Assembly (NCBI GenBank): GCA_036521155.1
Contig: DATDIH010000057.1
Span: 1 to 58,996, forward strand
Length of the DNA: 58,996 nt
Direction: 5' to 3'
Origin: Streptosporangiaceae bacterium
Lineage (GTDB): Bacteria > Actinomycetota > Actinomycetes > Streptosporangiales > Streptosporangiaceae
Positions within the stretch are counted from its first letter, which is position 1. The number at the start of each line of letters is the position of its first letter. Below are positions 8,044 to 45,823 of the stretch, one piece after another. A program made the translations under genes and the position numbers. The notes beneath the pieces are model-generated. The model had not been told where the DNA came from, searched no databases, and saw only the letters and a list, made by a program, of their open reading frames with translations.

Positions 8044-8066
8044 TCGCCCGGTCCGGTCCGGTCCGC

Positions 8067-11075: not shown

Positions 11076-11095
11076 TGAGTTCTCCTTGCCGGCGG

Positions 11096-12343: not shown

Positions 12344-12425
12344 TGTGATCGGCTCCTCAGTTCTCGTCCCGCCGGGCCCGATGATCCGGCCCCGGCGGGT
12401 CATCCCGCTTCGCTGACCCGGGCGG

Positions 12426-15237: not shown

Positions 15238-15711
15238 ATGACTGACTCCCTCAGCGACAGTTCCGTCGGCGGGGCGCCTGCTCCTTCACCGCTGAAACCA
15301 CTCGGCGAAGCGGAATGCTGGGACCTGCTCCGCGGGACCGGCATCGGCCGGGTGAGCTACTCGGGCCGGTTCGGGCCCATGATCCTTCCGATCAACTTCC
15401 AGGTCCGGGACGAGGCGATCTACTTCCGGGTCGCCGAGCACGGCCCGACCGGCGAGGACCTGCGCACCGGCATCGCGCACGCCGACTATCGCGTGGCTTT
15501 CCAGGCCGACCAGTTCGACTCGCGGACACGCAGCGGCTGGAGCGTGCTCGTGCAGGGTGACGTGCACCCCATGGAAACCGACGAAGAGCGTGCGACCGTG
15601 GCCCGGATCTGCGTCGAGTCCTGGGTCTCTGGCCCGCGTGAGCTGTTCATGCGCATCACTCCCGTTCACCTGTCCGGGCACCGCATCGGCCACGGGCCGG
15701 ACGCGGGATGA
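15238..15711 (+). CDS. Pyridoxamine 5'-phosphate oxidase-family (FMN/F420-binding split-barrel) protein
   Basis: 157 aa. The pattern CWDLLRGTGIGRVSY...ILPINFQV...IYFRV is typical of the PPOX-like family. Confidence 0.65.
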   Translation: MTDSLSDSSVGGAPAPSPLKPLGEAECWDLLRGTGIGRVSYSGRFGPMILPINFQVRDEAIYFRVAEHGPTGEDLRTGIAHADYRVAFQADQFDSRTRSGWSVLVQGDVHPMETDEERATVARICVESWVSGPRELFMRITPVHLSGHRIGHGPDAG

Positions 15712-16490
15712 CCGACCGCGACTTCCCGCAGACGGCGGTGGAGGTCAACCACGTCGAGCCCGCCCCTCGCCGGGTCCGCGGCTTCCTCGGCCAGGAGCTG
15801 ATCTTCGACACCGCCGCCGCCCGCTACGTGTGGGAGATTCCGTACTACCCGCAGTACTACATCCCGGTCACCGACGTTGATAAGCGCTTCCTGACCGACG
15901 AAGGCGTCCGCCAGAGCACTCGCCGCGGCCCGGCCCACCGCCATGGCCTGCACGCGGGCGGCCAGGACCGCCCCGGCGCCGTCCGAATCTACGGCGACGA
16001 CGCCATCCCCGGCGTGGCCGGCACCGCCCGCTTCGAATGGGCTGCGCTCGACGCCTGGTACGAAGAAGACGAGCAGATCTTCGTCCACCCCCGCAACCCG
16101 TACGCTCGGGTCGACGCGCTCCGCTCCCACCGCCGCGTCCGGGTCTCTCTGGACGGCGTCACCCTGGCCGAGACCGATACTCCGGTCCTGGTCTTCGAGA
16201 CCGGCCTGCCCACCCGCTACTACATCGACCGCACGGACGTGTCGTTCGCGCACCTGGTCCCCAGCGATACTCAGACCGCCTGCCCCTACAAGGGCGTCAC
16301 CAGCCAGTACTGGTCGGTGCAACTCGACTCGGGCCCCATCCGTCCCGAGCACCAGGATCTGGCCTGGGCCTACGATTTCCCCACCCGCCAGTTGCTCCCC
16401 GTGGCTGGCCTGGTCGCCTTCTACAACGAGAAGCTGGACATCGAAATCGACGGCCACCCGCTGCCGCGCCCGCACACCCACTTCTCCTGA
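15708..16490 (+). CDS. DUF427 domain protein (two DUF427 repeats)
   Basis: 260 aa, ATGA-coupled to the preceding ORF. The second repeat carries the hallmark CPYKGVTSQYWSV. Confidence 0.7.
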   Translation: MTDRDFPQTAVEVNHVEPAPRRVRGFLGQELIFDTAAARYVWEIPYYPQYYIPVTDVDKRFLTDEGVRQSTRRGPAHRHGLHAGGQDRPGAVRIYGDDAIPGVAGTARFEWAALDAWYEEDEQIFVHPRNPYARVDALRSHRRVRVSLDGVTLAETDTPVLVFETGLPTRYYIDRTDVSFAHLVPSDTQTACPYKGVTSQYWSVQLDSGPIRPEHQDLAWAYDFPTRQLLPVAGLVAFYNEKLDIEIDGHPLPRPHTHFS

Positions 16491-16765
16491 CCCGCGGCTC
16501 CGCCGCTCTCCAAACCCAGGTGGCCACCCGCCCCGCGACGCGCCTAACTTCGCGCAGGCCCGCACCAGGCATCCAAGATCAGTATTGGCTGCAGCCGCCA
16601 AAACCAGCACTGGCCGCACCCCGCCTCGTGAACAGCCACACGTAGTCCGTGCCCCGAGTCTCGGGGAGATTGCTTGTTCGTGGGTGTTGACGCTGCTTTC
16701 TGTCGGGTTTACGGTACCCGAGGAAAACCTATTCCCGCTGTGGGTTGATCCCCTGGGAGGCCACC

Positions 16766-19700: not shown

Positions 19701-20233
19701 GGTCCTCCGGTGCTACCGGAGCGCGCACCTACCAGGCCGAGGACGGCGCCCTGGCCGGCACGGCCAAGGTCGCCACCGGCTACAGCCAGGCCAACGGCAG
19801 CGTGGTGACCGGGGTTGGCGGCGGCGCCGCGAACTCGCTCACGTTCTCCGTTCAGGCCCCGGCGGCCGGCACCTACGGCATGACCGTCCGCTACGCCAAC
19901 AACCAGGGCATCATTGCCAACCACTACAACCCAGACCTGATGACCGCCCCCGCCGACATCAGCGTCAACGGCGGCTCCACCTTCCACGTCAACTTCGCCA
20001 ACACCTTTGACTGGAACCAGTTCTGGAACCTCACGGTCCCGGTCCGCCTGCACGCGGGCGCCAACACGATCAAATTCATCGCCAACCCCCAGTACAACTG
20101 GGACAGCACCACGATCGGCTACATCTACTCCGGCAGCGACGTCGGCGACCCCCTCCGCTCCCAGACCGCTCCCAACATCGACCAGATCACCCTGGCCCCC
20201 TTCCAGGCGAAGGCCGCGGGCGCCATGCCGTGA
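16766..20233 (+). CDS. Secreted multidomain glycosidase-like protein with a LamG domain and three CBM6/35-like modules
   Basis: The GTG at 16766 lies 5 nt after GGGAGG. The signal peptide is KRIASVLTVLALALLALAQAAQA. The N-terminal ~430 aa look like a glycosyl-hydrolase-like barrel. The LamG_3 block is DFTVSAWVNP...IFDFGTG...GTLYVDGK...GDLDDVGIY. Three repeats begin Y(A/E/Q)AE(D/Q)A... . Confidence 0.75.
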   Translation: MKRIASVLTVLALALLALAQAAQASPAQSRTATRTVAKSGAGAVTRSGAVTPATDLPSDSNTSATSDENLSVDLGATQGSFGHGADGSLYGLYDQGVPSDNLIQGMGLQTTDTKAQDGQQHPGSDALEIAQPFASSGGSDIYIYMTDVYRNFPYERTSYAQYQGYLRTEVKQDLTSPYRNRIVLVPYNEPDGNWFAGLQNNAATLAAFESEWQQTYQLIKGLWPAARIAGPNFFQYQGQALTAFLAYCQQNHCLPNIIAWHELNNPSTIAPDVAAFRAAEAPLGLNLPVSLDEYAARYQLTSPGRMVQWLSAINGAKVSGDLPYWNENGTLSDSTSQQNIPNAQWWLYNWYSSLNGQSVQVTPPQANTDNTLQAVAALNTAQRQARIILGGGPPGQADVTVKHVNPAVFGHTVHATVLQDGWSGMTGAAAAPTRIADSDVPVSANGSVNLPVDITGPPGGSGCNATGARVPGKIGNAVALCGNDEYVSLPSGIVSGLHDFTVSAWVNPSVDTAWQRIFDFGTGTNDYMFLTLNNGSGQLRFAITDSGAGGEQQINGTGTLPLNTWSQVTVTMSGSTGTLYVDGKAVGTNTAMTLDPADLGVTNQNWLGRSEYPADPYFSGDLDDVGIYSTALSASQVAALAGGQAAAGDVADYSFDETSGATALDSSGNGRNATIISDPQVPTSMDAYEIILSPGGTGSGTPADGTSPLSYAAADATMTGAGWNINTEGTPSNLGGFATYADQDVGGLRTGSSTVITFNVNVPQTGDYLMRVFDGSDAQASDVSGPTNIFARVDGGPPAEIWLPDAYNWVIWNYGTAQLHLTAGAHTISLSTAGANGAVTTGDAIIDKIDLTPQSASGAVIYEAEQAQLANGARADYARQGQSGAGAADIARGQDVTFWVYSASDGYSDLAFRSRGRGAAGVSVNGLPLSGDLPTGDGRSWSTQTDRVYLSAGVNKVVVTGRGGAVTLDKLTVTSVTGGSSGATGARTYQAEDGALAGTAKVATGYSQANGSVVTGVGGGAANSLTFSVQAPAAGTYGMTVRYANNQGIIANHYNPDLMTAPADISVNGGSTFHVNFANTFDWNQFWNLTVPVRLHAGANTIKFIANPQYNWDSTTIGYIYSGSDVGDPLRSQTAPNIDQITLAPFQAKAAGAMP

Positions 20234-20335: not shown

Positions 20336-21937
20336 TTAGTGCTCGGCGACCAGGCGGCCCAAGGTGATCGCGATCCACAGGGCGAAGCCGTCGCGGCCGT
20401 CCGTCGGCGCATACCCCGTCAACTCGGTGACGCGGCGGAGGCGGTAGCGGACCGTGTTCGGGTGGACGAACAGCATGCGGGCCGTGGCTTCCAGCGACGA
20501 GCCCTGTTCCAGGTAGGTGGTGAGCGTGTCGACCAAGGCCGGACCCCCGGCCAGGAGCGGCTCGTACACGTCGGTCACCAGCAGGGAGCGGGCGTCGACG
20601 TCGCCGTTCATGGCTCGTTCCGGTAGCAGTTCGTTGGCGCTGACCGGGCGGGGGGCGTCTGGCCAGGCGACTGCGGCGCGGAGGCCGGCCAGGGCGGCGC
20701 GGGCGGACGCGGTGGCCGAACGCAGGTCAGGGACGACCGGCCCCACGACCAGGGGACCGGCCCCGAAGCGGCCCGCGAAGCGTTCGGCGGCGGCGACCGG
20801 ATCGTCGGTGCCGCCGAGCACCATCACCAGCCGGCTGCCCTGGACGCCGGCCAGCACGTCGAGCCGGGCCCGTTTGGCGTCGGTGCGCAGGTCGTCGATG
20901 AGGCCGGCCGCCTCCTCACCGTCGATCTGGCCCGCGATCACCGCCACCGGGGAGGACGTCCAGTTCAGGGCGGACGCCCATGAGTTCAGCGACTCCTCGG
21001 TCTCGCCACGGGCCAGCGAGCCCACGACCAGGGCTTCGAGGCGGGCGTCCCAGGCGCCGCGGGCCTCGGCGGTGCGGGCGTAGACCTGGGCCGCGCCGAA
21101 CGCGACCTCGCGGGTGTAGCGGAGCACGGCCTCGCGCAACTCGGCCTCGCCGCCCGGGGCGGCGAGCTCGTCGACCTGGGATTCGACCACATCGATGATG
21201 ACCCGCACCATCTCCACGGCCTGCTGCAGGCTGACCGCGCGGGCCAGCTCGCGGGGGGCCGTGCCGAACACCTCGCCCGCCACGGCCGGACGGCTTCGCT
21301 CCGGGTGCCGCACCCAGTCCACGAACGCGGCGATCCCGGCCTGGGCGACCAGACCCAGCCAGGACCGATTCTCGGCGGACATGGCCCGGAACCACGGCAG
21401 TCGCTTGTCCATCGACGCGATGGCCGCGGTACCCAGGCGGCCGGTGGACTGCTCGATGCGGGCCACGGTTTCCTCGGCCACCCGGCTGGTCCCAGGTGTC
21501 CCGGAAGTCCCCCCAGCCCCGGATGACCCTCCCCGACGGCGAGTCCCGGGAAGCCGATGAGTCCGCCCTTTCCCGCGAGTCTCACCAGCCCCGGAATTAC
21601 TGGGAGCCTCAGCAATCGCGGAAGGCTCAGCGATCTCAGAGGCCGGGGCCGGGGCCGGGGCCCGGGTCGGGGCTGCTGGGGCTGCAGCGGTCTGAGAGTC
21701 TTCTGGGTTCGGTGATGCTTCTGGGCTGACCCCAGTAGCCCCGTTGCGCCCAGTGGTCTCAGCGGTGCCAGCGGTCCCAGCGGCACCGTCAGTATCGTCA
21801 GCCCCGTCAGGCCCAGCAGTCTCGCCCATCTCGGCCGTCTCAATCGGCGTCTCGGACGTCGCCTTTTCCGGGTCGGACGGGCGCTTGCTGCCCTTACGCA
21901 GCCGCCGCGGGGAGCCGGTCTGCTCGCTGGTGGCCAT
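20336..21937 (-). CDS. PucR-type transcriptional regulator (MabR/FasR-like) with a long low-complexity N-terminus
   Basis: The C-terminal PucR HTH is LFVHPNTVRYRLRRVTELTG. It has the same strand and relative order to fabD as Rv2242 (MabR) and SCO2386 (FasR). The first ~165 aa are Ala/Pro/Gly/Thr/Glu-rich, so the true start is uncertain. Confidence 0.75.
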   Translation of the reverse strand: MATSEQTGSPRRLRKGSKRPSDPEKATSETPIETAEMGETAGPDGADDTDGAAGTAGTAETTGRNGATGVSPEASPNPEDSQTAAAPAAPTRAPAPAPASEIAEPSAIAEAPSNSGAGETRGKGRTHRLPGTRRRGGSSGAGGTSGTPGTSRVAEETVARIEQSTGRLGTAAIASMDKRLPWFRAMSAENRSWLGLVAQAGIAAFVDWVRHPERSRPAVAGEVFGTAPRELARAVSLQQAVEMVRVIIDVVESQVDELAAPGGEAELREAVLRYTREVAFGAAQVYARTAEARGAWDARLEALVVGSLARGETEESLNSWASALNWTSSPVAVIAGQIDGEEAAGLIDDLRTDAKRARLDVLAGVQGSRLVMVLGGTDDPVAAAERFAGRFGAGPLVVGPVVPDLRSATASARAALAGLRAAVAWPDAPRPVSANELLPERAMNGDVDARSLLVTDVYEPLLAGGPALVDTLTTYLEQGSSLEATARMLFVHPNTVRYRLRRVTELTGYAPTDGRDGFALWIAITLGRLVAEH

Positions 21938-29053: not shown

Positions 29054-29515
29054 ATGGCGGTGGAGATCGGCGAGCAGGCCCCCGACTTCGAGCTGACCGA
29101 CCAGCATGGCACGCCGGTCAAGCTGTCGGATTTCCGCGGCTCGAAGAATGTCGTCGTGGTCTTCTACCCGCTGGCGTTCAGCGGTGTGTGCAGCGGTGAG
29201 CTGTGCGCGATCCGCGATGAGTTCCCGGAGATCACCCGGGATGACGTGGAGATGCTGACCGTGTCGGTGGACTCGATGTTCACCCACCGGGCCTGGGCCG
29301 ACGCCGAAGGTTTCAATTTCGAATTGCTGTCGGATTTCTGGCCGCACGGCGATGTGGCCCGGTCCTATGGTGTCTTCGACGATGACCGGGGCCTGGCCAT
29401 TCGGGGCACCTTCATCATCGACAAGGCCGGCGTCGTGCGGTGGAAGGTCGTGAACCCGATCCCGCAGGCGCGCGACATCAGCGAGTACCAGAAGGCGCTC
29501 GCGGCGCTGGATTGA
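29054..29515 (+). CDS. ahpE: AhpE-like 1-Cys peroxiredoxin
   Basis: 153 aa with the peroxidatic Cys in VVFYPLAFSGVCSGE and a thioredoxin fold. Confidence 0.85.
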   Translation: MAVEIGEQAPDFELTDQHGTPVKLSDFRGSKNVVVVFYPLAFSGVCSGELCAIRDEFPEITRDDVEMLTVSVDSMFTHRAWADAEGFNFELLSDFWPHGDVARSYGVFDDDRGLAIRGTFIIDKAGVVRWKVVNPIPQARDISEYQKALAALD

Positions 29516-29559: not shown

Positions 29560-29934
29560 ATGGCGGGGATGCCCTGCTACCACTGCGGTACGCGGCAGGT
29601 CGACCCGGACCAGGGGCCCAGCCCCTGGGGGCGGGGCCTGCTCGACGACCATCAGATCCTGATCTGCCCCGCCTGCCAGGGGCAGCGCGACTGGACGGCC
29701 GACCTGGACCGATGCGGCCGATGCGGCAGCGCCCACCTGGTCCGCCGCCTCGATGAGGTCGAATGCCGGGACTGCGGGCTCATCCGCCTGACCGGCACCG
29801 TCCCGCTCGCCCGCGCCTCCAGTGACCTGGACGGGGCCGCGTCCCCGCCGCCCGACCCCGAACTGGCCGCCGAGGTCGAACGCGCCCTGGCCAAGGTCCT
29901 GGGCAAGACCGCCAAGGTCATCGCCGCCCCCTGA
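29560..29934 (+). CDS. Small zinc-ribbon protein (four CxxC pairs)
   Basis: 124 aa with CYHC...CPAC...CGRC...CRDC. The function is not recognisable. An ATG at 29569 is an alternative start. Confidence 0.5.
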   Translation: MAGMPCYHCGTRQVDPDQGPSPWGRGLLDDHQILICPACQGQRDWTADLDRCGRCGSAHLVRRLDEVECRDCGLIRLTGTVPLARASSDLDGAASPPPDPELAAEVERALAKVLGKTAKVIAAP

Positions 29935-29962
29935 GGTCAGGGTCCTGTCGCGGTCGTCAGCT

Positions 29963-31936
29963 TCAGGCGTGACTCTCCTGGTAGAGACGCTGCGCCATGG
30001 CCTGATGGTGTCGTGAAAGCCCCGGATCCACGGCTTCCACCGCCTGCCGCGCGAGGTCGGCCACGGCGGCACGGTCGGTCCGCTCCGCGACTCGGGCCGC
30101 GTACAGCAGGACGAAGCCGTTCTGGCGGGCCGCGTTGATGGCCGCGTCGATGTCCTTCCGAGCCGCGTCCCAATCATCCAGCTGGGCGTGGGCCAGCCCC
30201 CGGGCAGCTTGGGCCGAAGGCGGTACGGGGCTCTGCAGCCGCTCGAGGTCGCGGAGCGCGGGCCGGGCATCGCCCAGATCGGCGAGGATCTCGCCCCGGG
30301 CCGCGATCGCTTCGCGGTTCCCGCCGTTGGTGCTCAGGGCCCCGTCGAGAATTGCGACGGCGGCGCGTCCTTCGCCCAGCCACCACAGCGCGCGAGCCAG
30401 TCCCGCCTGCAGGATGGGATCGTCCGGCCCACGGTCCGAGGCCTTGAGCAACTGGTCCCGGGCGTCGCCCAGCTGTCCTTGGTCGATCAGGGTCTGTCCC
30501 ACGGCAGCAAGCTGATAGGCCACGGCGTTGGTGTCGTTTACCGCCGCGAATGCCTCGGCCGCCTGGCGGTACCAGGGCGCCGCGTCGCGCGGTTTCTCCC
30601 GCTCGTAAGCGATGTTGCCCAGCAATGAGCTGGCTTCGGCGCGAAGCCGGAGGTCCACTTCGCCGGCGGCGCGGAGGGTCAGCCGGGCGTAGTGCTCCGC
30701 CGAATCCAGCTCGGACAGGCTCAGCATCCGTTCGGCGGCTCGCAGGTGGCTCTCAGGCGGCGAGGAGGCGGCGGGCCCGACGGCGGCATCGCCCAGCGGT
30801 TCGATCAGCCGGTCGCTGAGAAGCTCATACCAGCGTGAGCCGGGTCGCTGACTGGCCCGCAGCAGATGCTGGTCCTCGAGGGCCCTGACGACCGCATTCG
30901 GCATGCCTGCGGTGACCGTAGCCCCCTCGTACGTGCCGGTGCGCCGGCCGTGCTCGGTGACGAAGGTCTTGATCAGCCAGCGCCGCAGGCGAGAGGCGGT
31001 CACCTCGTGCTCCTCGGCGACCGTGGCCACGGCGTCACCGCAGTATTCGGAGAGCGCCGCGGTCACGTCCCCGTAGCGGCGTACGTCGCGAGTGGCGATG
31101 ACCTTGAGGTCTGCGGGCAGGGTTCGCCACAAGCGAGAGCAGGACACCTGCAGCAGCACCGGCTCGACCGACTCGCTGAAGCTGACCTGCTCGGTGCCGT
31201 CGTCACTGATCAGATTGCTCGTCTGGAGGTCGGTGACCAGGGCGGCGGCGGCGCCACGTTCGAAGGCCCGGCCGGTGCGCTCCAGCGGTCTTTTCACCGC
31301 GTCCAGCGCGCCGCCCGGGCTGAGCGGCCGGACGTCGTAGCGTGCAGCCTGGCGGAAAGCCTTACCCAGCGATGCGCTTGCCTCAGCCCGGACCATCAGC
31401 AGCAAATGCAGCCGGCTGTGCTGTTCCAGTGCGGCCTGGAGCCCCTGGATGAACCTGCGCCGGTGGCTCCACCGGGGCCCGGAGTCGGTGAGCAGTTCTT
31501 CCGCCTGATCGATGACGGCCAGGATCGGTGCGTCGTGCCGTTCGGCCCGCCGCGCAATGAAGTCGGCGATGCTGACCCCGGCCAGGCGCGTTGGTGGTGT
31601 GCCCGGTGACCAGGAACTGAGCAGAGCAATCGAGTACGGGTTCTGCGACGGTAGTGCCGCCCACGGGAATGCGGCGCCGTGCGAGATCCGTCCCGGGGGC
31701 AGCACGTCGGCCTTCCCGGCCTCGACTAATGGCAGCACGCCCGCCTGGAGCAGCGAAGTCTTACCGATCCCCGCGGGCCCGGCAGCGATGCTCAGCCGGC
31801 ATTTCTGCCACAATTTGGCCAGCGCATGCGATTCTTCGTCGCGCCCGAAAAAGCGATCGCGATCACCGTCTTCGAAAGGATGGTCACCGGGGTAAGGCGC
31901 ATCCTTAGTCCGGGGCTTCGCGCCGGTCATCGTCAC
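29963..31936 (-). CDS. nSTAND1-type P-loop NTPase fused to C-terminal TPR repeats
   Basis: 657 aa with a GTG start. The N-terminus is YPGDHPFEDGDRDRFFGRDEE, followed by Walker A AGPAGIGKTSLLQAG and Walker B ILAVIDQAEELL. The C-terminal ~250 aa are TPR-like. It lies 108 nt downstream of the fxsA-like ORF on the same strand. Confidence 0.8.
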   Translation of the reverse strand: MTMTGAKPRTKDAPYPGDHPFEDGDRDRFFGRDEESHALAKLWQKCRLSIAAGPAGIGKTSLLQAGVLPLVEAGKADVLPPGRISHGAAFPWAALPSQNPYSIALLSSWSPGTPPTRLAGVSIADFIARRAERHDAPILAVIDQAEELLTDSGPRWSHRRRFIQGLQAALEQHSRLHLLLMVRAEASASLGKAFRQAARYDVRPLSPGGALDAVKRPLERTGRAFERGAAAALVTDLQTSNLISDDGTEQVSFSESVEPVLLQVSCSRLWRTLPADLKVIATRDVRRYGDVTAALSEYCGDAVATVAEEHEVTASRLRRWLIKTFVTEHGRRTGTYEGATVTAGMPNAVVRALEDQHLLRASQRPGSRWYELLSDRLIEPLGDAAVGPAASSPPESHLRAAERMLSLSELDSAEHYARLTLRAAGEVDLRLRAEASSLLGNIAYEREKPRDAAPWYRQAAEAFAAVNDTNAVAYQLAAVGQTLIDQGQLGDARDQLLKASDRGPDDPILQAGLARALWWLGEGRAAVAILDGALSTNGGNREAIAARGEILADLGDARPALRDLERLQSPVPPSAQAARGLAHAQLDDWDAARKDIDAAINAARQNGFVLLYAARVAERTDRAAVADLARQAVEAVDPGLSRHHQAMAQRLYQESHA

Positions 31937-32044
31937 AACAGCCCATCCACTGCCACTTGTCTTGCCAGGCCAGATTCAAGGGCTCGCCGGATTCGCCGGT
32001 GATAGGGCCGGCGTTGCGGAACCGGTGAAGCGATTGCCCTCTGC

Positions 32045-32185
32045 TCAGATACTAGACTGAAATCCCTTGACTTCACGACGCTTGGTGAACGTCAGTATCT
32101 CGTCCAGCGCAGTCGGGCCAGCCGGAGCCTTCTGGTCTGTCTCCGCCGAAACGCCGTCACCTGCGGATTTGATGCTGTAGTCCAT
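32045..32185 (-). CDS. fxsA: FxSxx-COOH (FxsA-like) RiPP precursor peptide, 46 aa; not in the supplied ORF track
   Basis: My hand translation of the minus strand gives MDYSIKSAGDGVSAETDQKAPAGPTALDEILTFTKRREVKGFQSSI*. AGGAG lies 6 nt upstream of the ATG. The C-terminus F-Q-S-S-I-COOH fits the FxSxx-COOH motif. An FxsB-type rSAM and an FxsT-type TPR protein are within 3 kb. Confidence 0.7.
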   Translation of the reverse strand: MDYSIKSAGDGVSAETDQKAPAGPTALDEILTFTKRREVKGFQSSI

Positions 32186-32419
32186 GCTGCGCTCCTAACG
32201 TGGTCGGCGTCCAGTGGCGCGGTCCACGTGATGCCACCCGACAAGCGTCAATTGAGAAATACGTGAGTCTCAGTGGTTTGTCGAGTGGTAAATTCCAGAA
32301 ATTTTTGGCCATATATTAACGTGTGGCTCAGGAGTAACTTCATTCTCAGGTGCAACATGATCGGAGCCAATTTAACTTGCGTCATTTGACGCTATCGCCG
32401 AAACAATAGCGAGCTTAAA

Positions 32420-35035
32420 ATGGCTTGTATGACAGTGCAGGATTTCGGGCAGGGCCGCAGCCGTGAACCTGTGATCTGGGGTAATGTCCCTCAGCGCAAT
32501 AAGAACTTCACAGGCCGCGGAGAGATCCTCGAGTTGCTCAGGCAGCAGGCATCGGCTCGGGTCGCGGTCGTTTCGCCGGAGAAGCCGCCCGAGCCGGGTG
32601 GGAATGGCCAGCCGGGTCAGCATCGGGACGTCACCGATGAGCTGCTGCCAAGAGCTCTGCACGGCCTGGGTGGAGTAGGCAAGACCACGCTCGCGGTGGA
32701 GTACGCCCACCGCTACCGCGGAGACTACGATCTCGTGTGGTGGATCGCGGCCGACGAAATCGCATTAGTACGTGCATCGCTGGCCGCCCTGGCCGACCGG
32801 CTCGGTCTGCGGTCGACCTCGGTCACCGGAATCGAGGGCGCTGCCACCGCCGTCATGGACGCCCTGCGCCGCGGCGAGCCCTACCGCCGGTGGTTGCTGG
32901 TTTATGACAACGCGGACCAGCCCGAAGAGATCGGCGAGCTCATCCCCGGCGGTCCCGGCGACGTCATCATCACGTCCCGGAACAACCGCTGGGCGGCCAA
33001 GGTCGAAACCGTCGAGGTCGACGTGTTCTCCCGGACGGAGAGCACCGAATTCCTGTCCCGCCGCGTCAGCACGGCCATCACCGAGTCCGACGCGGGACGG
33101 CTGGCCCAGGAACTGGGCGACCTGCCGCTGGCCCTGGAACAGGCGGGAGCCCTGCAGGCCGAGACCGGAATGTCGGCCGATGAGTACCTGCGGTTGCTGA
33201 GCGAACAGCCCACCCAGATCATGGCCGAGGGCAAATCGGCCGACTACCCGCGCTCGATGACGGCGGCCTGGATGCTGTCCGTCTCCCAGCTCAAGCAGCA
33301 GCTGCCACAGGCCCTGGACCTGCTGCGCTGTTGCGCATTTTTCGGCCCCGACCCGATCCCGCGGGACGTCTTCCGCCGGGGCAACCAGCCCAAGAAGACC
33401 CGGATGAGCGAGCTCATCGCTGACCCGATCCTGCTGTCCCGGGCCATCCGGGAACTGGGGCGATTCGCGCTGGTGAAGATCGACGCCGGCCGGTCCATCG
33501 CGGTGCACCGGCTCGTGCAGACGTTGCTGCGCGATGAGCTGTCTCCCGAAGACCAGGCCGAGTTCCGCCACGAAGTGCACCTGATCCTGGCCGCTGCGGC
33601 CCCGGAGAACCCGGACGACGAAAAGCTGTGGCCGAGGTTCAACGAGCTCGTCGCCCACGTGGCCGGCGAGGCGACGGACCTGGCCGGTTGCCGCGATCCT
33701 GAGGTACGGGCGTTCGCGCTGAAGATGGTCCGGTATTTCTACCGGTCCGGCGACCACGCCTCGTCGCGTGCTTTTGCCGAACGGTTCGTCTCACGCTGGA
33801 TAGCAGAGTCCGGTCCCGACGATGAGAACGTGCTCGACGGCCAGCGCCACCTTGGCAACGCTCTGCGGGAACTGGGGCAGTACGCCCGGGCCTATGAGGT
33901 CATCAACGAGACCTTCGGACGGGCTCGCCTGGTGCTGGGTGAGCAGAACCCGCTCACGCTGGCGCTCCGCAACTCGCTCGGTGCGGACTTGCGGGCCCGC
34001 GGCGAGTTCGCGGCCGCGCGGGAACTGGACGAGGAGACGCTCGCCCTGCACCGGGAGTTCTACGGCGATGACGACCCGCACACGTTCCGGGCCATGAACA
34101 ACCTGGCGCTGGACCTGGGCCTGAACAGCGAGAACGATAAGGCCCGGGAACTGCACCGGCAGACGTTCCTGCTGCAGAGCGACGACACCACCGGCCGAGT
34201 TTCGTCCTCGGAGGTCGTGGACTCGTGGAACGGCCTGGCTCGGGCCGTCCGGCTCTGTGGCGACTTCCGCGACGCGCGCGACCTGGGTGAAGAGGCGCTG
34301 GACTACGGCCGGGCCAACCTGGGCGACGACCATATTCTCACCCTCCGGACCGCCATCGACCTGTCCATCGCGCTGCGCCGCATGGGGACAGCGGGGGACG
34401 ACGCCCGGACCCTGGCCCAGGAGACCTACGAGACCTGCCGCAGGCGGCTGGGGCTGCGCCAGCCGGATACCATGGCCGCGGCCATCAGCCTGGTCAACAC
34501 TCAGCGGCAGCTGGGCACGCTGGACCCGGCGACGATCGAATTGGCCGAGACCACGGTGCAGCGGTACACCACCGTCTTCAGCCCGCTGCATCCGTATTAC
34601 TTCGGCTGCCTGGGCAACCTCGCGCTGCTGCGCCGGGCCAGCGGCGACGCGGCCGCGGCGCGCGAAATCGATGAGAAGGCGCTCAGTGGCCTGGACGAGA
34701 CCCTGACGCGTGATCACCTGTACTCGCTGTCGATAGCGATCCATCTGGCCAGTGATCTGGCCGCTCTGATGGACCCGGAGGGCGCCCGCGCGCTGGACGA
34801 GGACACCTGGAGGCGTGCCCAGGCGCTGCTCGGCGAGAACGATCCGCTGACCCTGGCCTGCGCCGCCAACCTGTCCCTGGACCTGCGGGCCATGGGCGAC
34901 ACCGCCACCGCCGACGATCTGCTGAAGGATGCGCTGGCTCGCTACCGGGAGACGGGCCACCACGAGTATCAGGAAGCCAGGGCAGCCGCGGCCGGCGAGC
35001 GCGTGGACTTCGAGTTCGATCCGCCTGGCGTCTGA
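32420..35035 (+). CDS. fxsT: FxSxx-COOH-system NB-ARC/TPR protein (FxsT-like STAND NTPase)
   Basis: 871 aa. The NB-ARC motifs are GLGGVGKTTLA (P-loop), LLVYDNAD (Walker B), IITSRN and GDLPLALEQAG (GLPL). The C-terminal ~450 aa are TPR_10/12-like repeats. It is divergent from the fxsA-like ORF. Confidence 0.85.
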   Translation: MACMTVQDFGQGRSREPVIWGNVPQRNKNFTGRGEILELLRQQASARVAVVSPEKPPEPGGNGQPGQHRDVTDELLPRALHGLGGVGKTTLAVEYAHRYRGDYDLVWWIAADEIALVRASLAALADRLGLRSTSVTGIEGAATAVMDALRRGEPYRRWLLVYDNADQPEEIGELIPGGPGDVIITSRNNRWAAKVETVEVDVFSRTESTEFLSRRVSTAITESDAGRLAQELGDLPLALEQAGALQAETGMSADEYLRLLSEQPTQIMAEGKSADYPRSMTAAWMLSVSQLKQQLPQALDLLRCCAFFGPDPIPRDVFRRGNQPKKTRMSELIADPILLSRAIRELGRFALVKIDAGRSIAVHRLVQTLLRDELSPEDQAEFRHEVHLILAAAAPENPDDEKLWPRFNELVAHVAGEATDLAGCRDPEVRAFALKMVRYFYRSGDHASSRAFAERFVSRWIAESGPDDENVLDGQRHLGNALRELGQYARAYEVINETFGRARLVLGEQNPLTLALRNSLGADLRARGEFAAARELDEETLALHREFYGDDDPHTFRAMNNLALDLGLNSENDKARELHRQTFLLQSDDTTGRVSSSEVVDSWNGLARAVRLCGDFRDARDLGEEALDYGRANLGDDHILTLRTAIDLSIALRRMGTAGDDARTLAQETYETCRRRLGLRQPDTMAAAISLVNTQRQLGTLDPATIELAETTVQRYTTVFSPLHPYYFGCLGNLALLRRASGDAAAAREIDEKALSGLDETLTRDHLYSLSIAIHLASDLAALMDPEGARALDEDTWRRAQALLGENDPLTLACAANLSLDLRAMGDTATADDLLKDALARYRETGHHEYQEARAAAAGERVDFEFDPPGV

Positions 35036-35045
35036 TCACGGTCGG

Positions 35046-36242
35046 TCAGCGTCGGCTCAGGTCGTCGTCGACCACCAGCTTGATGTGATCGATCAGGGCC
35101 ATGAGGTCCGGGCAGTACACCGACGGATTGGCGAAGCCACTGCCGGGGCGGTACCGGTGCGCATACAAGCCGCCACCGCACTCGTGCAGAACGTGGCATT
35201 GACGGCACTTCGGAGCCAGCGCTTGTTCTCCCAGCTGGCGAGCGACCATGCCGGGCAGGTAGAGCGCCTGATCGAACGGGTGGTGGCCAACGTGCAGGCC
35301 GGTCGCGGGTGCTCCCTCGTAGGCCGCTTTCAGCAGGTCGGACTGCTCGATGGACCCGTCCGTCTCGATGACCAGGGTTCTGGACGGGCCGAGGCCCACC
35401 ATTTCCGCCTCGACATCGTGGCCCATGGCCAGGCGCATGATCGTGTCGAACAGCCGGATGCGGGTCTTGAACTCGTGGTACCAGTGGTCGAAGACGGTAA
35501 TCAGCCAGCCGGCGTACGGAGTGTCGGGGAGATCAGGTATGCGCCCAGGCGGCGGATCGGCCCATGTTCCGTGCGGCATCAGAAAGTCGATCTGCGGCGG
35601 GTCGAAAGAGGCCAGGGCCTGGTAGGTCGCGAGTGGGTCGTTCCGCAGGTCGATCGTGCAGAGCAGCCCGCTGAACAGGTGCCGGTAACGGTCACCGGTC
35701 AGGCGCTCAAGGCCGGTTGCCACGGCCCTGTGGCTGCCGCGCCCGCTGGCGAACCGGCGGTGCCGATCGTGCGCCTCGGGTGCGCCGTCCAGGCTCACGC
35801 CCACCTGCACGCCGAGATCATCGAAGAGATCCAGGAAGGGTTCGCTCAGGCCCACCCCGTTCGTTTGCACCCAAACGCTGACGTTGACCTTTGCGTCAAC
35901 CGCCTCGCGGGTCGCGCCCACAAGCTGAGCGATAAGGTCCCGCCCGGCCAGTAAGGGCTCGCCGCCATGGAGGATCAGCGAAATGTCTGGCACGTTGTGC
36001 GCACGGACATGCTCGCCAATACGAAATGCTGTTGCCGCCGCCGTCTCACCCGACATGCGCATTGGCTGATCTCGCCACGATTGATCAGCCATCTCGTACA
36101 TGTAGCAGTAGTCACAAGCAAGATCACATCGGCTGTGGACCTTCACCACGAACTCATGAAAAGGTTCTGGCCGCCACCCGCCCAACAGGAGTGCGTCAAC
36201 ATCGAGCGTCGACGGCCACTCGGGTCGTTCGGCAGGACCCAC
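35046..36242 (-). CDS. fxsB: FxsB-family radical SAM/SPASM peptide maturase
   Basis: 398 aa with a GTG start. The radical SAM cluster is VKVHSRCDLACDYCY (CxxxCxxC). The C-terminal SPASM motif is CRQCHVLHECGGG...YCPD. It is convergent with fxsT, with a 10-nt gap. Confidence 0.88.
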   Translation of the reverse strand: MGPAERPEWPSTLDVDALLLGGWRPEPFHEFVVKVHSRCDLACDYCYMYEMADQSWRDQPMRMSGETAAATAFRIGEHVRAHNVPDISLILHGGEPLLAGRDLIAQLVGATREAVDAKVNVSVWVQTNGVGLSEPFLDLFDDLGVQVGVSLDGAPEAHDRHRRFASGRGSHRAVATGLERLTGDRYRHLFSGLLCTIDLRNDPLATYQALASFDPPQIDFLMPHGTWADPPPGRIPDLPDTPYAGWLITVFDHWYHEFKTRIRLFDTIMRLAMGHDVEAEMVGLGPSRTLVIETDGSIEQSDLLKAAYEGAPATGLHVGHHPFDQALYLPGMVARQLGEQALAPKCRQCHVLHECGGGLYAHRYRPGSGFANPSVYCPDLMALIDHIKLVVDDDLSRR

Positions 36243-36760
36243 GTCTCAATTGAATCACACAATTTGCCAAAAATTGAGCCTGCAGTTTGCCCCGACGAAA
36301 TAAATTACCGTGAGTATTGATAGCCCATCGCCGCGGGGGCGGCTCAGACTGAATGACCAGCCGGAAACACCTTGTGATCGTTGGCCGATCGCGAAATCGG
36401 CTCACTACGCCCAGATGCCCCGCGTGTCATTCTCGGTATAACTGCCATCTCACGTCACACGCGTATCTGACGTTACATCATTGTTTAATTTTCCGGCGGG
36501 GCCGAGAAATCTTCGGTTATCTGAAAATTACGATTGAATGTTAACGCGGGTATTAGAGAAACCTTCTTCTGCAACTCGCATTTGCAATATGCATCTTTGC
36601 AAAGAAATCGCCCTGAGCTGGGCATTGCGCCGCTACCATACGGACACCCGGTCTCAATTCACCCATCGGGTCCGCCCGGCGCGGCGCCAGTGGTAGGTTG
36701 CCAGGGTGCGCCGTCCGTTGCTGAACAGCTGTATGCGGTCAGTAAGCCGGTGAGTGCCAC

Positions 36761-38359
36761 ATGACCGTGACGGCACCCGGCGCGCGAACAGCCAGCGCAG
36801 CTACTGTTAAAGAGACGGTCAGCGAAGCGCCGGTGGGCGTGGCGGTGGATGCCGGAGTAGCGTACGGCGCGGAACCGATAGACCTGGGAACGCCCAGCAG
36901 GGAAACGCCCGAAAATATCGAAGCCAGCGAGCAAATTGGCTTCGCCGTTGCAACTCACGCGACAAAACGAAGCCATTCGGCCGGCTCCGAGCTAAATGCT
37001 GCTATAGCCATCGGAGAGATGGCACCACCCACCGGGAATGCGCCGTCTCGCCGCGAGATTTGGAAATACCTTCCCAGCGGAGCGAATGGCAGCTATCTGC
37101 GGCTAGTGGGCGGCTCATCGCTGTCTATGCTGGGTACGCGCATGAGCAGCATTGCCTATCCGATGTTGGTGCTGCTGCTCACGAAATCTCCGATTATGGC
37201 CGGCTGGGCCGCCTTCGCGGCCACGGCGCCCAGCATTCTGGCCTATATCCCGGCTGGCGCCCTGGTCGACCGCTGGAATGCGCGCATTGCCATGCTGGTG
37301 AGTGAGATCGGGCGCGGCTGCGCGATATTGACGGTCGTTCTCGCCTTCTGGCTCGGCCATTCTGCCGGGTGGGTAGTAAGCGTACTGATCGCGATGGCCG
37401 TGCTGGAAGAGACGCTCGAAGTCTTTTCGGGGCTGAGTGAGCGCCGGCTGATCACCGGACTGCTGGGGCGGGCTGACGCGTCGTCGTCCTCCGGCGGCAA
37501 CGAGGCTCGTACCCACGTGGTGGTGATGGTGGGACGGCCAGCGGGAGGGTTGCTCTTCGGCCTCGCGCCCGTTCTGCCGTTCGTGGCCGATGCGTTCTCG
37601 TTCCTGTTCTCGATCGGGTCGCTGGTCACCGTCAAATACCGGAAAAGCTCGGACGCGGTCCAGAGAAGCCCGCGGGACCCCGAATATTCGGCCAAGAAAA
37701 TCCTGGAAGGTCTGCGGTGGGTGTGGCATGACAGATTCGCCCGCGCCGCGTGCTTGCTGAACGCGGGCGGAACGCTGGTCGTGCAAGCGCTCATATTGAT
37801 CTTTTTGTTTGAAGCTGACCGGGTGAAATTTACCTATGAAACCGTCGGAATTGTGCTGGCCTCGACCGGGGCTGGCGGGGTGCTCGGGTCGCTGGTCGCA
37901 AAGCGACTGATGCGGTGGTTCAGCGAAAAGCCACTGCTGCGCTGGTTCAGCGGGCGATGGTTCAGATTTCAGATGTGCCTGTGGCTGATAGTGTTCATCG
38001 GAATTTCCGTGACCATCAACACGCATCATCTGCTGCGGTTTCTTGTCGTGGAAATGTTCGTGATCGGCCTCACCGGAGCCATTGGCAACGTGGAGATCGA
38101 CCGGTATCTGATCGAACGCAGCCCGGATGAGATGCTCGGCCGGGTGGCCAGCGTCAGCAGCCTGATGGATTTCTTCGCCTTCGCCGTCGGGCCGGTGCTC
38201 GGCGGGTGGCTCGTGCAGATAGCCAAGCCAGACCTCGCCATCCTGGTTCTGGCGATGGTGGTCCTCGCGCTCGCGGTGTGGTCGGTGTGGATGCCCTCGG
38301 CGCAACCGGACAACAGCAGCGGGCAGATCGAGCGCACAGCCGAGTGGGCCGAAGCCTGA
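36761..38359 (+). CDS. MFS transporter (EntS/MFS_3-like secretion-effector family)
   Basis: About 12 TM segments, with RMSSIAYPMLVLLLT...PAGALVDRWN typical of MFS_3. The first ~85 aa are non-membrane and may be an over-extension (alternative ATG at 37019). Confidence 0.75.
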   Translation: MTVTAPGARTASAATVKETVSEAPVGVAVDAGVAYGAEPIDLGTPSRETPENIEASEQIGFAVATHATKRSHSAGSELNAAIAIGEMAPPTGNAPSRREIWKYLPSGANGSYLRLVGGSSLSMLGTRMSSIAYPMLVLLLTKSPIMAGWAAFAATAPSILAYIPAGALVDRWNARIAMLVSEIGRGCAILTVVLAFWLGHSAGWVVSVLIAMAVLEETLEVFSGLSERRLITGLLGRADASSSSGGNEARTHVVVMVGRPAGGLLFGLAPVLPFVADAFSFLFSIGSLVTVKYRKSSDAVQRSPRDPEYSAKKILEGLRWVWHDRFARAACLLNAGGTLVVQALILIFLFEADRVKFTYETVGIVLASTGAGGVLGSLVAKRLMRWFSEKPLLRWFSGRWFRFQMCLWLIVFIGISVTINTHHLLRFLVVEMFVIGLTGAIGNVEIDRYLIERSPDEMLGRVASVSSLMDFFAFAVGPVLGGWLVQIAKPDLAILVLAMVVLALAVWSVWMPSAQPDNSSGQIERTAEWAEA

Positions 38360-38374
38360 GGCTAGGCTGAGCCT

Positions 38375-38884
38375 GTGGAAGTCGACATCATCGTCGAGGT
38401 CCCGCAGGGATCCCGGAACAAGTATGAGTACGACCCGGCTATTGACGCGATCCGGCTGGACCGGATGCTGTTCACCTCGACCCGGTACCCGCATGATTAT
38501 GGCTTCATCCCCGGCACGCTGGCCGAGGACAGTGACCCGCTCGACGCCATGGTCATCCTGGACGAGCCCACGTTTCCCGGCTGCCTGATCTCGGTCCGGC
38601 CCATCGGGGTGTTCTGGATGACCGATGAAAAGGGGCCGGACGCCAAGATCCTCACCGTGCCTGCGAGTGATCCGCGCTATGCGGGCTTCCAGGACCTCAA
38701 CGACGTGCCCGAGCACGTGACCGCGGAGATCGGGCACTTCTTCGACGTCTACAAGGAGCTCGAGCGGGACAAGGGCACGGACGTGCGTGGCTGGCAGGAC
38801 CGCGCGGCGGCCGAGAAGATCATCGAGGAGTCGTTCGCCCGGTTCGCCGCTGAGGGCGCTGCGGCTGGGGGCGCTACTGCCTGA
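38375..38884 (+). CDS. ppa: Inorganic pyrophosphatase
   Basis: 169 aa with a GTG start. IVEVPQGSRNKYEYD and DGDPLDA-like (DSDPLDAMV) motifs are present. Confidence 0.95.
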   Translation: MEVDIIVEVPQGSRNKYEYDPAIDAIRLDRMLFTSTRYPHDYGFIPGTLAEDSDPLDAMVILDEPTFPGCLISVRPIGVFWMTDEKGPDAKILTVPASDPRYAGFQDLNDVPEHVTAEIGHFFDVYKELERDKGTDVRGWQDRAAAEKIIEESFARFAAEGAAAGGATA

Positions 38885-43987: not shown

Positions 43988-44167
43988 GCTAGGCCTGAAC
44001 GCCGCCCGCCAGGCCACCGCGGCTTGGCGGGCGGCGAAAAGTTCTACACGGACATTGACAGCTCCCAGGCGTCAGTAGACACTCAACTCGTCCGCCCGCG
44101 TGTGATCCTGTTCGAATGTGATCATGCTCGGAGGGTCCAGCTGTGTCTGCCCAGCCAAGGAGCCCTG

Positions 44168-45823
44168 GTGAAGCATCTCCTGTCCGCCGCGCGCCCCCGC
44201 CACGCGATCCTGCTGGTCATCGCCTTCCTGTTCGCGGCCGGGGTCCCGGCGGTTCCCGCCCTGGCCCAGGCCGCTACCTCCACGGCCCCGACGGCCGCCT
44301 CAGCCCCGGCGGGCACTTCCGCCTCAGCCAAGCTCGCCTGCAACGTGGCCGCCGTCCAGTCCGCTCTCCACGTCCCGGACGTCACCGTGGTCACGGTCAG
44401 CCCGCAGACCAGCGGCAGCTACCCGGTGCCCGGCACCAGCACAACGCTGACCGGCCTGCCGGCCTTCTGCGAGGTCGCGCTGGCCCAGGCCGACGGGCAC
44501 GGCAACACCATCAACATCACGGTCTGGTTGCCCAGCGACTGGAACGGGCGGTTCGAAGGCGTCGGCGGCGGCGGGTACAGCTGCGGCGTCAGCTACCCGG
44601 CGCTGGGCACCGCCATCCAGGCCGGCTACGCCAGTGCTTCCACCGACTGCGGCAACCACCAGGCCGACGGCAGCTTCGCCCTGACCAGCTCGGGCCAGCT
44701 GAACTGGCCGCTGATCACCGACTTCGCCTCGGTCGGCATCCACGACATGTCGGTCACCGGCAAGGCCGTGACCGCCGCCTACTACGCCAGCCAGCCGCGC
44801 TACTCCTACTTCAACGGCTGCTCGACCGGCGGCCGCGAGGGGCTGATGGAGGCCCAGCGCTACCCGGCCGACTACAACGGCATCGTGTCCGGGGCGCCGG
44901 CCATCAACTGGACCCGGTTCATCCCGGCCGAGATCTGGCCCGAGCTGGTCATGAAGGAGAGCAGCGACTACCTGCCCACCTGCAAGGAAGACGCGTTCAC
45001 GGCGGCCGTGGTCAAGGCCTGCGACCCCCGCGACGGAGTGACCGACGGCATCATCAGCGACCCGGCCGACTGCCACTGGAACCCGGCCACCCTGGTTGGC
45101 ACCGTGACCCCCTGCGGCACGATCACCGCCACCGACGCCGCCGTGGTGGCCAAGATCTGGCAGGGTCCGGTCAGCACCCGCGGGACCAAGCTCTGGTACG
45201 GGCTGGAACCGGGGGCCAGTTTCGACGGCCTCGCCGCCACCACCACGGTCAACGGGGTCACCGGCCCAGCACCGTTCTCGATCTCGGCCACCTGGCTCGG
45301 CACCTGGCTCCAGCAGAACCCGTCCTGGAACTGGCAGACGCTGACCTACGCCCAGTTCGACCGGCTGTTCCAGCAGTCGGTGCGGGAATTCTCCGGCGTC
45401 ATCGCTACCGACAACCCCAACCTGTCCCAGTTCAAGCGGGCCGGCGGCAAGATCCTCATCTGGCACGGCCTGGCCGATCAGCTGATCTTCCCCCAGGGCA
45501 CGATCAACTACTACCAGCGCGTCCAGCAGGCCATGGGCGGCCCGCAGCGCACAGACTCGTTCGCGCGCCTCTTCCTGGCTCCCGGCGCCCAGCACTGCGC
45601 CAGCGCCGCCGGCCCGGCCCCAGCCAACCCCCTGGCCGCCGTGGCCAGCTGGGTCGAGCACGGCCAGGCCCCGACCTCCATCCTGGCCACCGTCACCGAC
45701 CCCGCCACCGGCGCCGTCACCCTGTCCCGCCCCCTGTGCGCCTACCCCCTGACCGCCCACTACACCGGCCACGGCAGCCCCTCGGTCGCCAGCAACTTCT
45801 ACTGCGCCCCCGGGAAGCCCTAA
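44168..45823 (+). CDS. Tannase/feruloyl-esterase-family secreted alpha/beta hydrolase
   Basis: The GTG at 44168 follows AAGGAG. A signal peptide ends ALAQA, and the family motif FNGCSTGGREG is present. The track start (44024) is an extension. Confidence 0.85.
   Translation: MKHLLSAARPRHAILLVIAFLFAAGVPAVPALAQAATSTAPTAASAPAGTSASAKLACNVAAVQSALHVPDVTVVTVSPQTSGSYPVPGTSTTLTGLPAFCEVALAQADGHGNTINITVWLPSDWNGRFEGVGGGGYSCGVSYPALGTAIQAGYASASTDCGNHQADGSFALTSSGQLNWPLITDFASVGIHDMSVTGKAVTAAYYASQPRYSYFNGCSTGGREGLMEAQRYPADYNGIVSGAPAINWTRFIPAEIWPELVMKESSDYLPTCKEDAFTAAVVKACDPRDGVTDGIISDPADCHWNPATLVGTVTPCGTITATDAAVVAKIWQGPVSTRGTKLWYGLEPGASFDGLAATTTVNGVTGPAPFSISATWLGTWLQQNPSWNWQTLTYAQFDRLFQQSVREFSGVIATDNPNLSQFKRAGGKILIWHGLADQLIFPQGTINYYQRVQQAMGGPQRTDSFARLFLAPGAQHCASAAGPAPANPLAAVASWVEHGQAPTSILATVTDPATGAVTLSRPLCAYPLTAHYTGHGSPSVASNFYCAPGKP

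Follow-up and report, generated by a model that had tools for sequence, protein, structure and literature searches.

Why should the gene of a ribosomally synthesized precursor peptide be coupled to a STAND NTPase rather than to the enzyme that modifies the peptide? The question is raised by an FxSxx-COOH (Fxs) cassette in a 58,996-nt stretch of Streptosporangiaceae DNA (hereafter, the window), where positions 29935-38374 hold five intact open reading frames (ORFs) with their catalytic motifs retained, namely, those for an nSTAND1 NTPase with tetratricopeptide repeats (TPRs), a 46-residue FxsA-like precursor, the NB-ARC and TPR protein FxsT, the radical S-adenosylmethionine (SAM) enzyme FxsB and an MFS transporter (Table 1). 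An initial annotation, made from the sequence alone, had placed all five genes correctly and had regarded the wiring of the precursor and STAND genes as unusual. Our analysis revealed that this wiring is, instead, the conserved architecture of the FxsT-containing clade. We tentatively favour the view, at a probability somewhat short of even, that the cassette is a self-peptide-gated, NLR-like STAND signalling module, which would be present here in a reduced form.

Conserved architecture of the Fxs cassette

A scan with an FxsB alignment, covering one genome per GTDB species, gave ~580 FxsB matches, of which the best 80 were kept as survey loci. These belong to Streptosporangiales and some Pseudonocardiales, their FxsB proteins are 58-69% identical to that of the window, and their other genes were mapped by tblastn. 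A single gene order recurs among them: fxsB, usually together with a gene for an aKG-HExxH enzyme, converges with fxsT, which in turn diverges from fxsA, and the nSTAND1 gene comes after fxsA on the same strand. The proposal that nSTAND1 genes might co-occur with fxsB is borne out at 69 of the 74 evaluable loci, and when nSTAND1 homologues served as the starting point, the same cassette was reached in all 6 look-ups. The aKG-HExxH gene is present at 68 of 76 evaluable loci, whereas the other members are more sporadic, with an MFS gene at 47, a gene for a ~160-residue membrane protein at 26 (by hidden Markov model, HMM) and a SIR2 gene at 15 of the 80. The protein distances of all cassette members co-vary (mirror tree of 52 cassettes, r 0.75-0.83).

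In the haa and YxD-tail clusters, which encode FxsB-family maturases of other types, the precursor gene lies directly upstream of the maturase gene. Thus, the coupling of fxsA with a STAND gene appears to be specific to, and conserved within, the Fxs system.

FxsB homologues with at most 51% identity in annotated plasmid records (Nocardia, Streptomyces and Embleya) proved uninformative, as they represent other subtypes (haa, YxD-tail and others) without FxsT and nSTAND1. FxsT and nSTAND1 are lacking with the ~50%-identity homologues of Nocardia, Embleya and one Streptomycetaceae strain. The TIR-like protein FxsC, which we take to be a component of Fxs systems, had no match among the proteins scanned against NCBIfam, no search aimed at FxsC having been made; at three of the five loci without nSTAND1 (L049, L058 and L059), the ORFs downstream of fxsT gave neither an FxsC-like nor any other system protein in the NCBIfam scan. 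Three loci from Planomonospora and Planobispora (L047, L071 and L074) contain two complete, mirror-image cassettes, the fxsB genes of which diverge from a spacer of ~240-730 bp, with a separate FxsA variant, SIR2 and nSTAND1 for each cassette.

Insertion of the cassette

Taken jointly, the statements that the block is an Fxs cassette and that it is a horizontally acquired accessory insert are very probably correct. A metagenome scan with the adjacent pyrophosphatase recovered four contigs of close relatives (L093, L095, L097 and L105), all of which run from ahpE through orf124 to ppa without a cassette. AceE is 96-99% identical to that of the window in the first three contigs and 88% identical in L105. 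Gene order at these empty sites is aceE-DUF3052-ahpE-orf124-ppa-(orf292)-ArsP-LysR, with a gap of ~40-120 bp between orf124 and ppa, so that the block is not core synteny, and the accessory insert suggested initially is confirmed. L005 carries a cassette at the identical site, with proteins 65-84% identical to those of the window, and homologous cassettes are found in unrelated flanks in L001, L003, L172, L173 and L174. In two of these relatives, mobile genes lie within 1-2 kb of the cassette, a phage-integrase fragment in L172 (12972-13595) and three transposases (rve, ISL3 and IS4) in L174 (11787-15999), which fits residence of the cassette in variable regions.

Composition also sets the block apart. 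Both divergent spacers (Table 1) lie below the window mean of 69.7% G+C, in agreement with the AT-rich spacers recorded at first sight, and the G+C fraction at third codon positions is 0.75-0.86 in cassette genes versus 0.86-0.94 in most flanking genes. At the insert borders, we found no inverted or long direct repeats besides a single 7-nt direct repeat, CCTGAGG, at 29929-29935 and 38353-38359, which spans the stop codons (TGA) of orf124 and the MFS gene and possibly represents microhomology from the integration event. At the empty sites, the ancestral spacer between orf124 and ppa can be aligned with the end of the MFS coding sequence. As already noted in the annotation, neither a tRNA nor an integrase accompanies the insert: tRNA and Rfam scans of the whole window returned zero matches, and the 8.4-kb block leaves no space for an integrase. 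The small orf124 adjoins ahpE in all close relatives, with the cassette present or not, and its stop codon is the insertion point.

The precursor and its transcription

The FxsA precursor of the window has 46 residues, MDYSIKSAGDGVSAETDQKAPAGPTALDEILTFTKRREVKGFQSSI, and its gene has a ribosome-binding site, GGAG, 8 nt ahead of the ATG. It occupies the conserved position between fxsT and nSTAND1, where a home-made HMM detected FxsA at 64 of the 69 nSTAND1-bearing survey loci and inspection by eye added 4 more, and it is a small ORF with the F-x-S-x-x-COOH end. In typical relatives, the FxsA leader contains two boxes, 'GLIDVsGLSLxxL' and 'ALxRiL', and is joined by a short linker to a small residue and the core F-x-[S/N/A]-x-[I/L/V]-COOH. 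The peptide of the window retains the second box, as 'ALDEIL', and the core F-Q-S-S-I-COOH and lacks the 'GLIDVsGLSL' box; that of L005 is alike in having the second leader box and the core only. No signal peptide or hydrophobic segment is apparent (maximum hydropathy -0.21).

The proposed assignment of the proteins to the Fxs families by HMM held for two of the three members tested, as the scores of FxsB and FxsT exceed the curated cut-offs (Table 1), whereas FxsA gave no match to TIGR04268 of NCBIfam or to Pfam up to E=10. The L003 peptide reaches 24.4 bits against the FxsA model, below the 28-bit cut-off, by way of its leader box, and PF27839 (FxSxx-COOH) is annotated on the homologous peptide of one relative in precomputed annotations. 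The FxsA models score mainly the 'GLIDVsGLSL' box, which is missing from the window peptide.

About 100 nt upstream of fxsA lies a block, TCGACA-17 nt-TAnnnn, that can be aligned in most of the 18 cassettes compared within the window's clade. In the window it reads TCGACA (32284-32279)-17 nt-TATTTC (32261-32256). A simple sigma-70 scan did not call this promoter-like block, which we regard as a putative promoter. The spacer between fxsA and nSTAND1 contains no terminator-like site and no significant RNA structure (folding z-score +1.48), so that the two genes are likely co-transcribed. This agrees with the initial observation that the precursor appears to be co-transcribed with a STAND NTPase and not with its maturase. 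The precursor gene indeed sits directly upstream of nSTAND1, away from the maturase gene, with no terminator or stable hairpin in between. On the other side of the divergent region, an inverted repeat, CGCTAT-N10-ATAGCG, that is also conserved in L005 precedes fxsT and could be an operator.

Two irregular precursor loci were encountered in the survey. L025 (15012-16675) has three tandem fxsA genes after fxsT, with near-identical leaders and the tails FNSSI, YSSSI and FGSSI, followed by a weak nSTAND1 fragment and the contig end. In L011 (~15300-15500), the fxsA leader and core are out of frame, so that this is either a frameshifted pseudogene or an error of assembly; the HExxH gene and fxsT of this locus also look fragmented.

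Two STAND NTPases without output domains

The nSTAND1 protein (657 residues from GTG or 655 from the ATG at 31930) has the P-loop GPAGIGKTS and the Walker B motif VIDQAEE, and more than 600 full-length homologues. Its AlphaFold2 model (predicted local distance difference test score 90, predicted template modelling score 0.86) comprises an NTPase domain, a winged helix and seven TPRs only. The best full-length match in the PDB is 6mfv, a STAND-TPR protein, and the TPR arm is similar to OGT-like and to consensus TPR superhelices. FxsT (871 residues) combines NB-ARC, a DUF7779 winged helix and a TPR_12/TPR_10 arm, with the P-loop GLGGVGKTT and the Walker B motif LLVYDNAD; the family model NF040586 ('FxSxx-COOH system tetratricopeptide repeat protein') spans residues 23-870. 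The hallmark of STAND and NLR-like proteins, an NTPase with P-loop and Walker B motifs joined to a C-terminal repeat sensor, is present, and the two proteins have no detectable similarity to each other. The claim that neither carries an effector or DNA-binding domain stands, given the Pfam searches, the nSTAND1 model and the extent of the FxsT family match. Mean pairwise identity is 0.60 in the TPR arm of nSTAND1 and 0.58 in its NTPase domain; an arm as conserved as the NTPase domain fits a constant ligand.

Alternating partners and the reduced copy

The description of both STAND proteins as effector-less is true of the window copy and does not extend to the relatives, many of which pair nSTAND1 with one of two partners. 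The first is a SIR2_2 protein of ~293 residues (Pfam E 2e-29) that resembles the PADLOC models ThsA (Thoeris) and LmuA (Lamassu); its gene lies between fxsA and nSTAND1, with a 4-nt overlap of its stop and the nSTAND1 start. The second is the ~160-residue membrane protein, which has one N-terminal helix (hydropathy 1.8-2.0) followed by charged helices and which matched no Pfam family and gave no meaningful match in PADLOC, the two collections against which it was checked. Its gene is convergent with nSTAND1, directly 3' of it, and occurs mostly in the window's own clade. Across the 15 SIR2 loci and the 26 membrane-protein loci, the two never co-occur. At L028, ~500 bp without an nSTAND1 gene separate a membrane-protein gene (11880-12407, minus strand) from fxsT, which looks like a deletion of fxsA and nSTAND1 that spared the partner gene. 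Given that an ADP-ribosyltransferase has been reported to ADP-ribosylate a different triceptide (PMC12912966), the SIR2 partner may, by analogy, have a biosynthetic role.

Nowhere in the window is the membrane-protein gene found. The ~510 bp that hold this gene in L005 are missing here from the interval between orf124 and the nSTAND1 stop, and the same gap-free reduced junction is found in three independent samples, so that it is not an assembly artefact. By this alignment, the window copy is a reduced derivative in which the membrane-protein gene was lost by a ~510-bp deletion, and its lack of an effector is, in part, a secondary loss. A homologue of the aKG-HExxH enzyme, the L001 representative of which matches TIGR04267 (E 2e-49), could not be detected by tblastn in the window either, consistent with the absence of an HExxH enzyme noted initially. 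These losses, together with an FxsA leader that lacks the LIDV box and fails the family HMMs, could be taken to mean that the copy is a decaying remnant, functionless without the HExxH enzyme and the membrane protein. We regard this as very unlikely, given that the five ORFs and their catalytic motifs are intact, that the same reduced arrangement recurs in the three samples, and that 8 other survey loci lack the hydroxylase and at about half neither SIR2 nor the membrane protein was detected. Moreover, comparison with L005 (synonymous divergence dS ~0.85) gives ratios of nonsynonymous to synonymous substitution (dN/dS) of 0.19 for nSTAND1, 0.27 for fxsA, 0.12 for fxsT and 0.15 for fxsB, that is, purifying selection.

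The nature of the partners also suggests an Avs/NLR-type system for phage defence or abortive infection, in which the TPR arms would sense a phage protein and the Fxs peptide would be a cofactor, a regulator or a toxic output. nSTAND1 was indeed defined as a clade of STANDs in counter-invader systems (PMC8195603), but neither STAND protein of the window has a significant match in PADLOC, the sole hit being a P-loop match of 15.7 bits. Likewise, the SIR2 partner resembles the Thoeris and Lamassu SIR2 effectors, and SIR2 and the membrane protein alternate in the manner of swappable effectors, whereas the window copy has no fused or adjacent effector. The cassette is mobile and sometimes sits beside mobile-element genes; its neighbours here, however, are housekeeping or metabolic genes (aceE, ahpE, ppa and ArsP) rather than a defence island, and a scan of large ORFs of the window found no defence gene. 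Finally, the TPR arm is no more variable than the NTPase domain. On balance, a defence system of this type seems quite unlikely.

Maturase and putative exporter

FxsB (398 residues) exceeds the TIGR04269 cut-off and carries the CxxxCxxC motif, C39-x3-C43-x2-C46, along with the SPASM cysteines; in the FxsB alignment, C39, C43 and C46, C346, C349 and C355, and C377 are invariant. MscB, a member of the same family (IPR026335), links Phe-C4 to Ser-Cbeta in the FxS motif, as shown by nuclear magnetic resonance (NMR) after co-expression with the predicted precursor in Escherichia coli (PMC11002830). The FxsA of the window contains F42-Q43-S44, a cross-linkable aromatic-X-X motif by analogy with MscB. 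In the MFS ORF, the first ~86 codons have lower G+C and are unconserved even in comparison with L005, and tblastn matches in relatives begin at residues 88-115, so that translation probably starts at M87 (37019). This MFS_3 pump probably exports the mature peptide.

A proposed peptide-gated STAND switch and its alternatives

In the mechanism that we favour, the cassette would work as two coupled modules, one of the peptide and one of the switches, and fxsA would be expressed from its own conserved promoter as a single transcription unit with nSTAND1. By analogy with the characterised MscB, FxsB would then join the Phe ring of FxsA to the beta-carbon two residues further on, yielding a three-residue cyclophane in the FQS segment near the C-terminus. 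FxsT and nSTAND1 would not be biosynthetic proteins but receptors for the FxsA-derived peptide, with their TPR arms binding either the precursor or the cyclophane product. Such binding, be it activating or inhibitory, would set the ADP/ATP state and the oligomerisation of both NTPases. In sister cassettes, the output would plausibly be delivered by the ThsA-like SIR2 NADase or by the small membrane protein, and the window copy comprises the peptide, the maturase, the pump and both sensors, with no cis-encoded effector. The receptor role is suggested by the obligatory co-inheritance of the cassette members, the putative fxsA-nSTAND1 operon, the lack of DNA-binding or enzymatic output domains, and the alternation of partners typical of conflict systems.

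The main alternative is an ordinary cluster for a ribosomally synthesized peptide with post-translational modifications (RiPP), the exported triceptide of which would be an antibiotic, a metallophore or an extracellular signal, with the STAND-TPR proteins acting as leader chaperones or scaffolds, or as regulators via partners. This reading is possible, if somewhat doubtful. FxsB, the precursor and an MFS_3 exporter all belong to the cassette, and a tailoring aKG-HExxH enzyme accompanies them in most relatives; the MFS gene, however, was detected at little more than half of the survey loci, and the precursor is coupled to nSTAND1 and not to the maturase, in contrast to the haa and YxD-tail clusters. 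Together with the fact that the MscB cross-link was obtained in E. coli with the predicted precursor, this pairing argues for signalling over biosynthesis. A regulatory role sits uneasily with two STAND proteins that lack DNA-binding domains, and the ThsA-like SIR2 and membrane partners are left unexplained by a RiPP cluster.

Several observations nevertheless weigh against a peptide-gated switch, some of them in favour of the RiPP cluster. In partial Mantel tests on the 52 cassettes, FxsA tracks FxsB best, and partial correlations are lower for the TPR arms than for the NTPase domains, so that no signal specific to the TPR arms emerged. A distant NB-ARC and TPR relative of FxsT in the haa cyclophane cluster, HaaT, has been named 'RiPP biosynthesis TPR protein' by the NCBI curators. 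The initial proposal that the free C-terminus of the peptide would be the ligand of the TPR sensors, TPRs being classically known to clamp C-terminal carboxylates such as EEVD-COOH, is weakened: in ~16 of 68 relatives, the peptide runs 1 to ~25 residues past the FxSxx core, so that a fixed free carboxylate is not a universal determinant, unless the followers are trimmed. At the sensitivity used, ~40 of the 80 survey loci, and the window, have neither SIR2 nor the membrane protein, which implies that an effector output is not general. The missing PADLOC matches of the STAND proteins and the housekeeping surroundings count here as well.

A stronger form of the peptide-gated switch can also be envisaged, in which Fxs would be an NLR-like system that has its own radical-SAM-modified peptide as ligand; instead of being secreted as a natural product, this RiPP would act inside the cell as a guard signal or second messenger. 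FxsA synthesis and cyclophane capping would then report translation, SAM and Fe-S status to both STAND receptors, and a change in the level or modification of FxsA would flip the receptors and, in full cassettes, release the SIR2 NADase or the membrane effector. We consider this form unlikely.

Relation to known systems

The closest known counterpart is the Fxs/Msc triceptide system (TIGR04268, TIGR04269 and NF040586; MscA/MscB of Micromonospora), with which the locus shares the maturase and FxsT families, the F-x-S core and the MFS partner. The curated set matched here, however, has no model for nSTAND1, SIR2 or the membrane protein: nSTAND1 proteins scanned against NCBIfam hit generic TPR families only, SIR2 proteins had no match, and the membrane protein was checked against Pfam and PADLOC. 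Furthermore, the window copy departs from Fxs/Msc in lacking the aKG-HExxH enzyme and in having a precursor without the N-terminal leader box that fails the FxsA HMM. The haa cluster (haaT-haaA-haaB-haaN, Streptomyces sp. NBC_00080) likewise combines an FxsB-family maturase with an NB-ARC and TPR protein, and the NTPase domains of HaaT and FxsT share 23% identity (E 3e-6), but the genes of this cluster are co-directional, its precursor gene is directly upstream of the maturase gene, and it has one STAND protein and an acetyltransferase, without nSTAND1, SIR2 or membrane partners.

Resemblance to Avs5 (SIR2-STAND) and Thoeris ThsA resides in the STAND NTPase with a C-terminal sensor arm and in the ThsA-like SIR2_2 gene of sister cassettes. 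In contrast to those systems, the SIR2 of sister cassettes is unfused, the window has none, the cassette encodes its own modified peptide, and PADLOC does not assign it to them. The RRNPP systems (Rap/NprR/PlcR/PrgX with Phr/PapR-type peptides) similarly place TPR receptors beside a small gene with conserved C-terminal residues and an exporter nearby. Here, by contrast, the receptors are STANDs without helix-turn-helix or phosphatase output, the peptide lacks a signal sequence that would make it a Sec-exported pro-peptide and is predicted to be radical-SAM-modified, and the host is an actinomycete. MalT-type STANDs share the NTPase, the arm and the TPR-like sensor, as well as the ligand-switched oligomerisation that we propose; MalT, however, has a DNA-binding output and a sugar ligand, whereas the Fxs proteins have no output domain and their proposed ligand is a cassette-encoded peptide.

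FxsA, FxsB and FxsT were already curated families with published maturase chemistry, and what is new is the reduced variant and the family-level wiring with STAND, SIR2 and membrane proteins. In the open literature that we searched, no paper connects Fxs systems with nSTAND1, SIR2 or the small membrane protein, and the sole description of nSTAND1 is that of a STAND clade in counter-invader systems (PMC8195603). In dozens of actinomycete genera, a precursor gene is tied to two NLR-like NTPases in a unit that moves as a cassette, and the second NTPase swaps between a Thoeris-like NADase and a membrane protein as its partner. This turns an orphan RiPP cluster into a testable hypothesis, namely, that bacterial STAND receptors have a ribosomal peptide as their ligand. 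If true, it would join RiPP biosynthesis with prokaryotic NLR-type immunity and cell death and would provide a function for a widespread family of effector-less STAND-TPR proteins. With its peptide, maturase, pump and pair of sensors, the window copy is a minimal system provided by nature and would lend itself to binding studies.

Layout of the locus

Table 1. Coordinates of the Fxs cassette and its flanks in the window, and of partner genes in related loci
Locus	Feature	Position	Strand	Remarks
Window	AhpC/TSA (ahpE) flank	29054-29515		
Window	orf124, 4xCxxC zinc-ribbon-like, 124 aa	29560-29934	+	no Pfam family
Window	Left junction	29935-29962		28 nt, orf124 stop to nSTAND1 stop
Window	nSTAND1+TPR NTPase	29963-31936	-	Pfam PF20703 E 1e-33 and TPR families
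Window	fxsA-nSTAND1 spacer	31937-32044	-	108 nt; 81.5% identity to L005 spacer
Window	fxsA-like precursor ORF	32045-32185	-	46 aa, ends GFQSSI-stop
Window	Divergent fxsA/fxsT region	32186-32419		234 bp, 48.7% G+C; 76% identity to L005
Window	Promoter-like block upstream of fxsA	32256-32284	-	alignment of 18 cassettes
Window	Inverted repeat CGCTAT-N10-ATAGCG	32390-32413	-	directly upstream of fxsT start
Window	fxsT, NB-ARC+TPR	32420-35035	+	NF040586, 946.6 bits vs cut-off 300
Window	fxsB, radical SAM/SPASM	35046-36242	-	TIGR04269, 470.4 bits vs cut-off 370
Window	Divergent fxsB/MFS spacer	36243-36760		518 bp, 53.1% G+C
Window	MFS_3/MFS_1 transporter	36761-38359	+	Pfam and NCBIfam
Window	Right junction	38360-38374		MFS stop to ppa start
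Window	Inorganic pyrophosphatase (ppa) flank	38375-38884		
L046	SIR2 gene	15595-16476	+	
L054	SIR2 gene	7388-8299	+	
L031, L033, L034, L037-L039, L047, L053, L056, L057, L071, L074, L077, L090	Further SIR2 loci			
L001	Membrane-protein gene	12118-12606	-	
L003	Membrane-protein gene	11970-12452	-	
L005	Membrane-protein gene	11904-12464	-	
L173	Membrane-protein gene	10958-11440	-	
L174	Membrane-protein gene	11017-11505	-	

The convergent fxsB and fxsT genes are separated by 10 nt. We considered, and rejected, a riboswitch or a small ORF hidden in the AT-rich spacers: the 518-bp spacer between fxsB and the MFS gene is poorly conserved (65% identity to L005, with many gaps), contains no conserved ORF and has no Rfam match. 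Elsewhere in the window are genes for a 1162-residue Laminin_G_3/CBM35 protein (16745-20233, plus strand), a PucR-type regulator (20336-21937, minus strand) and a tannase/feruloyl esterase (44024-45823, plus strand).

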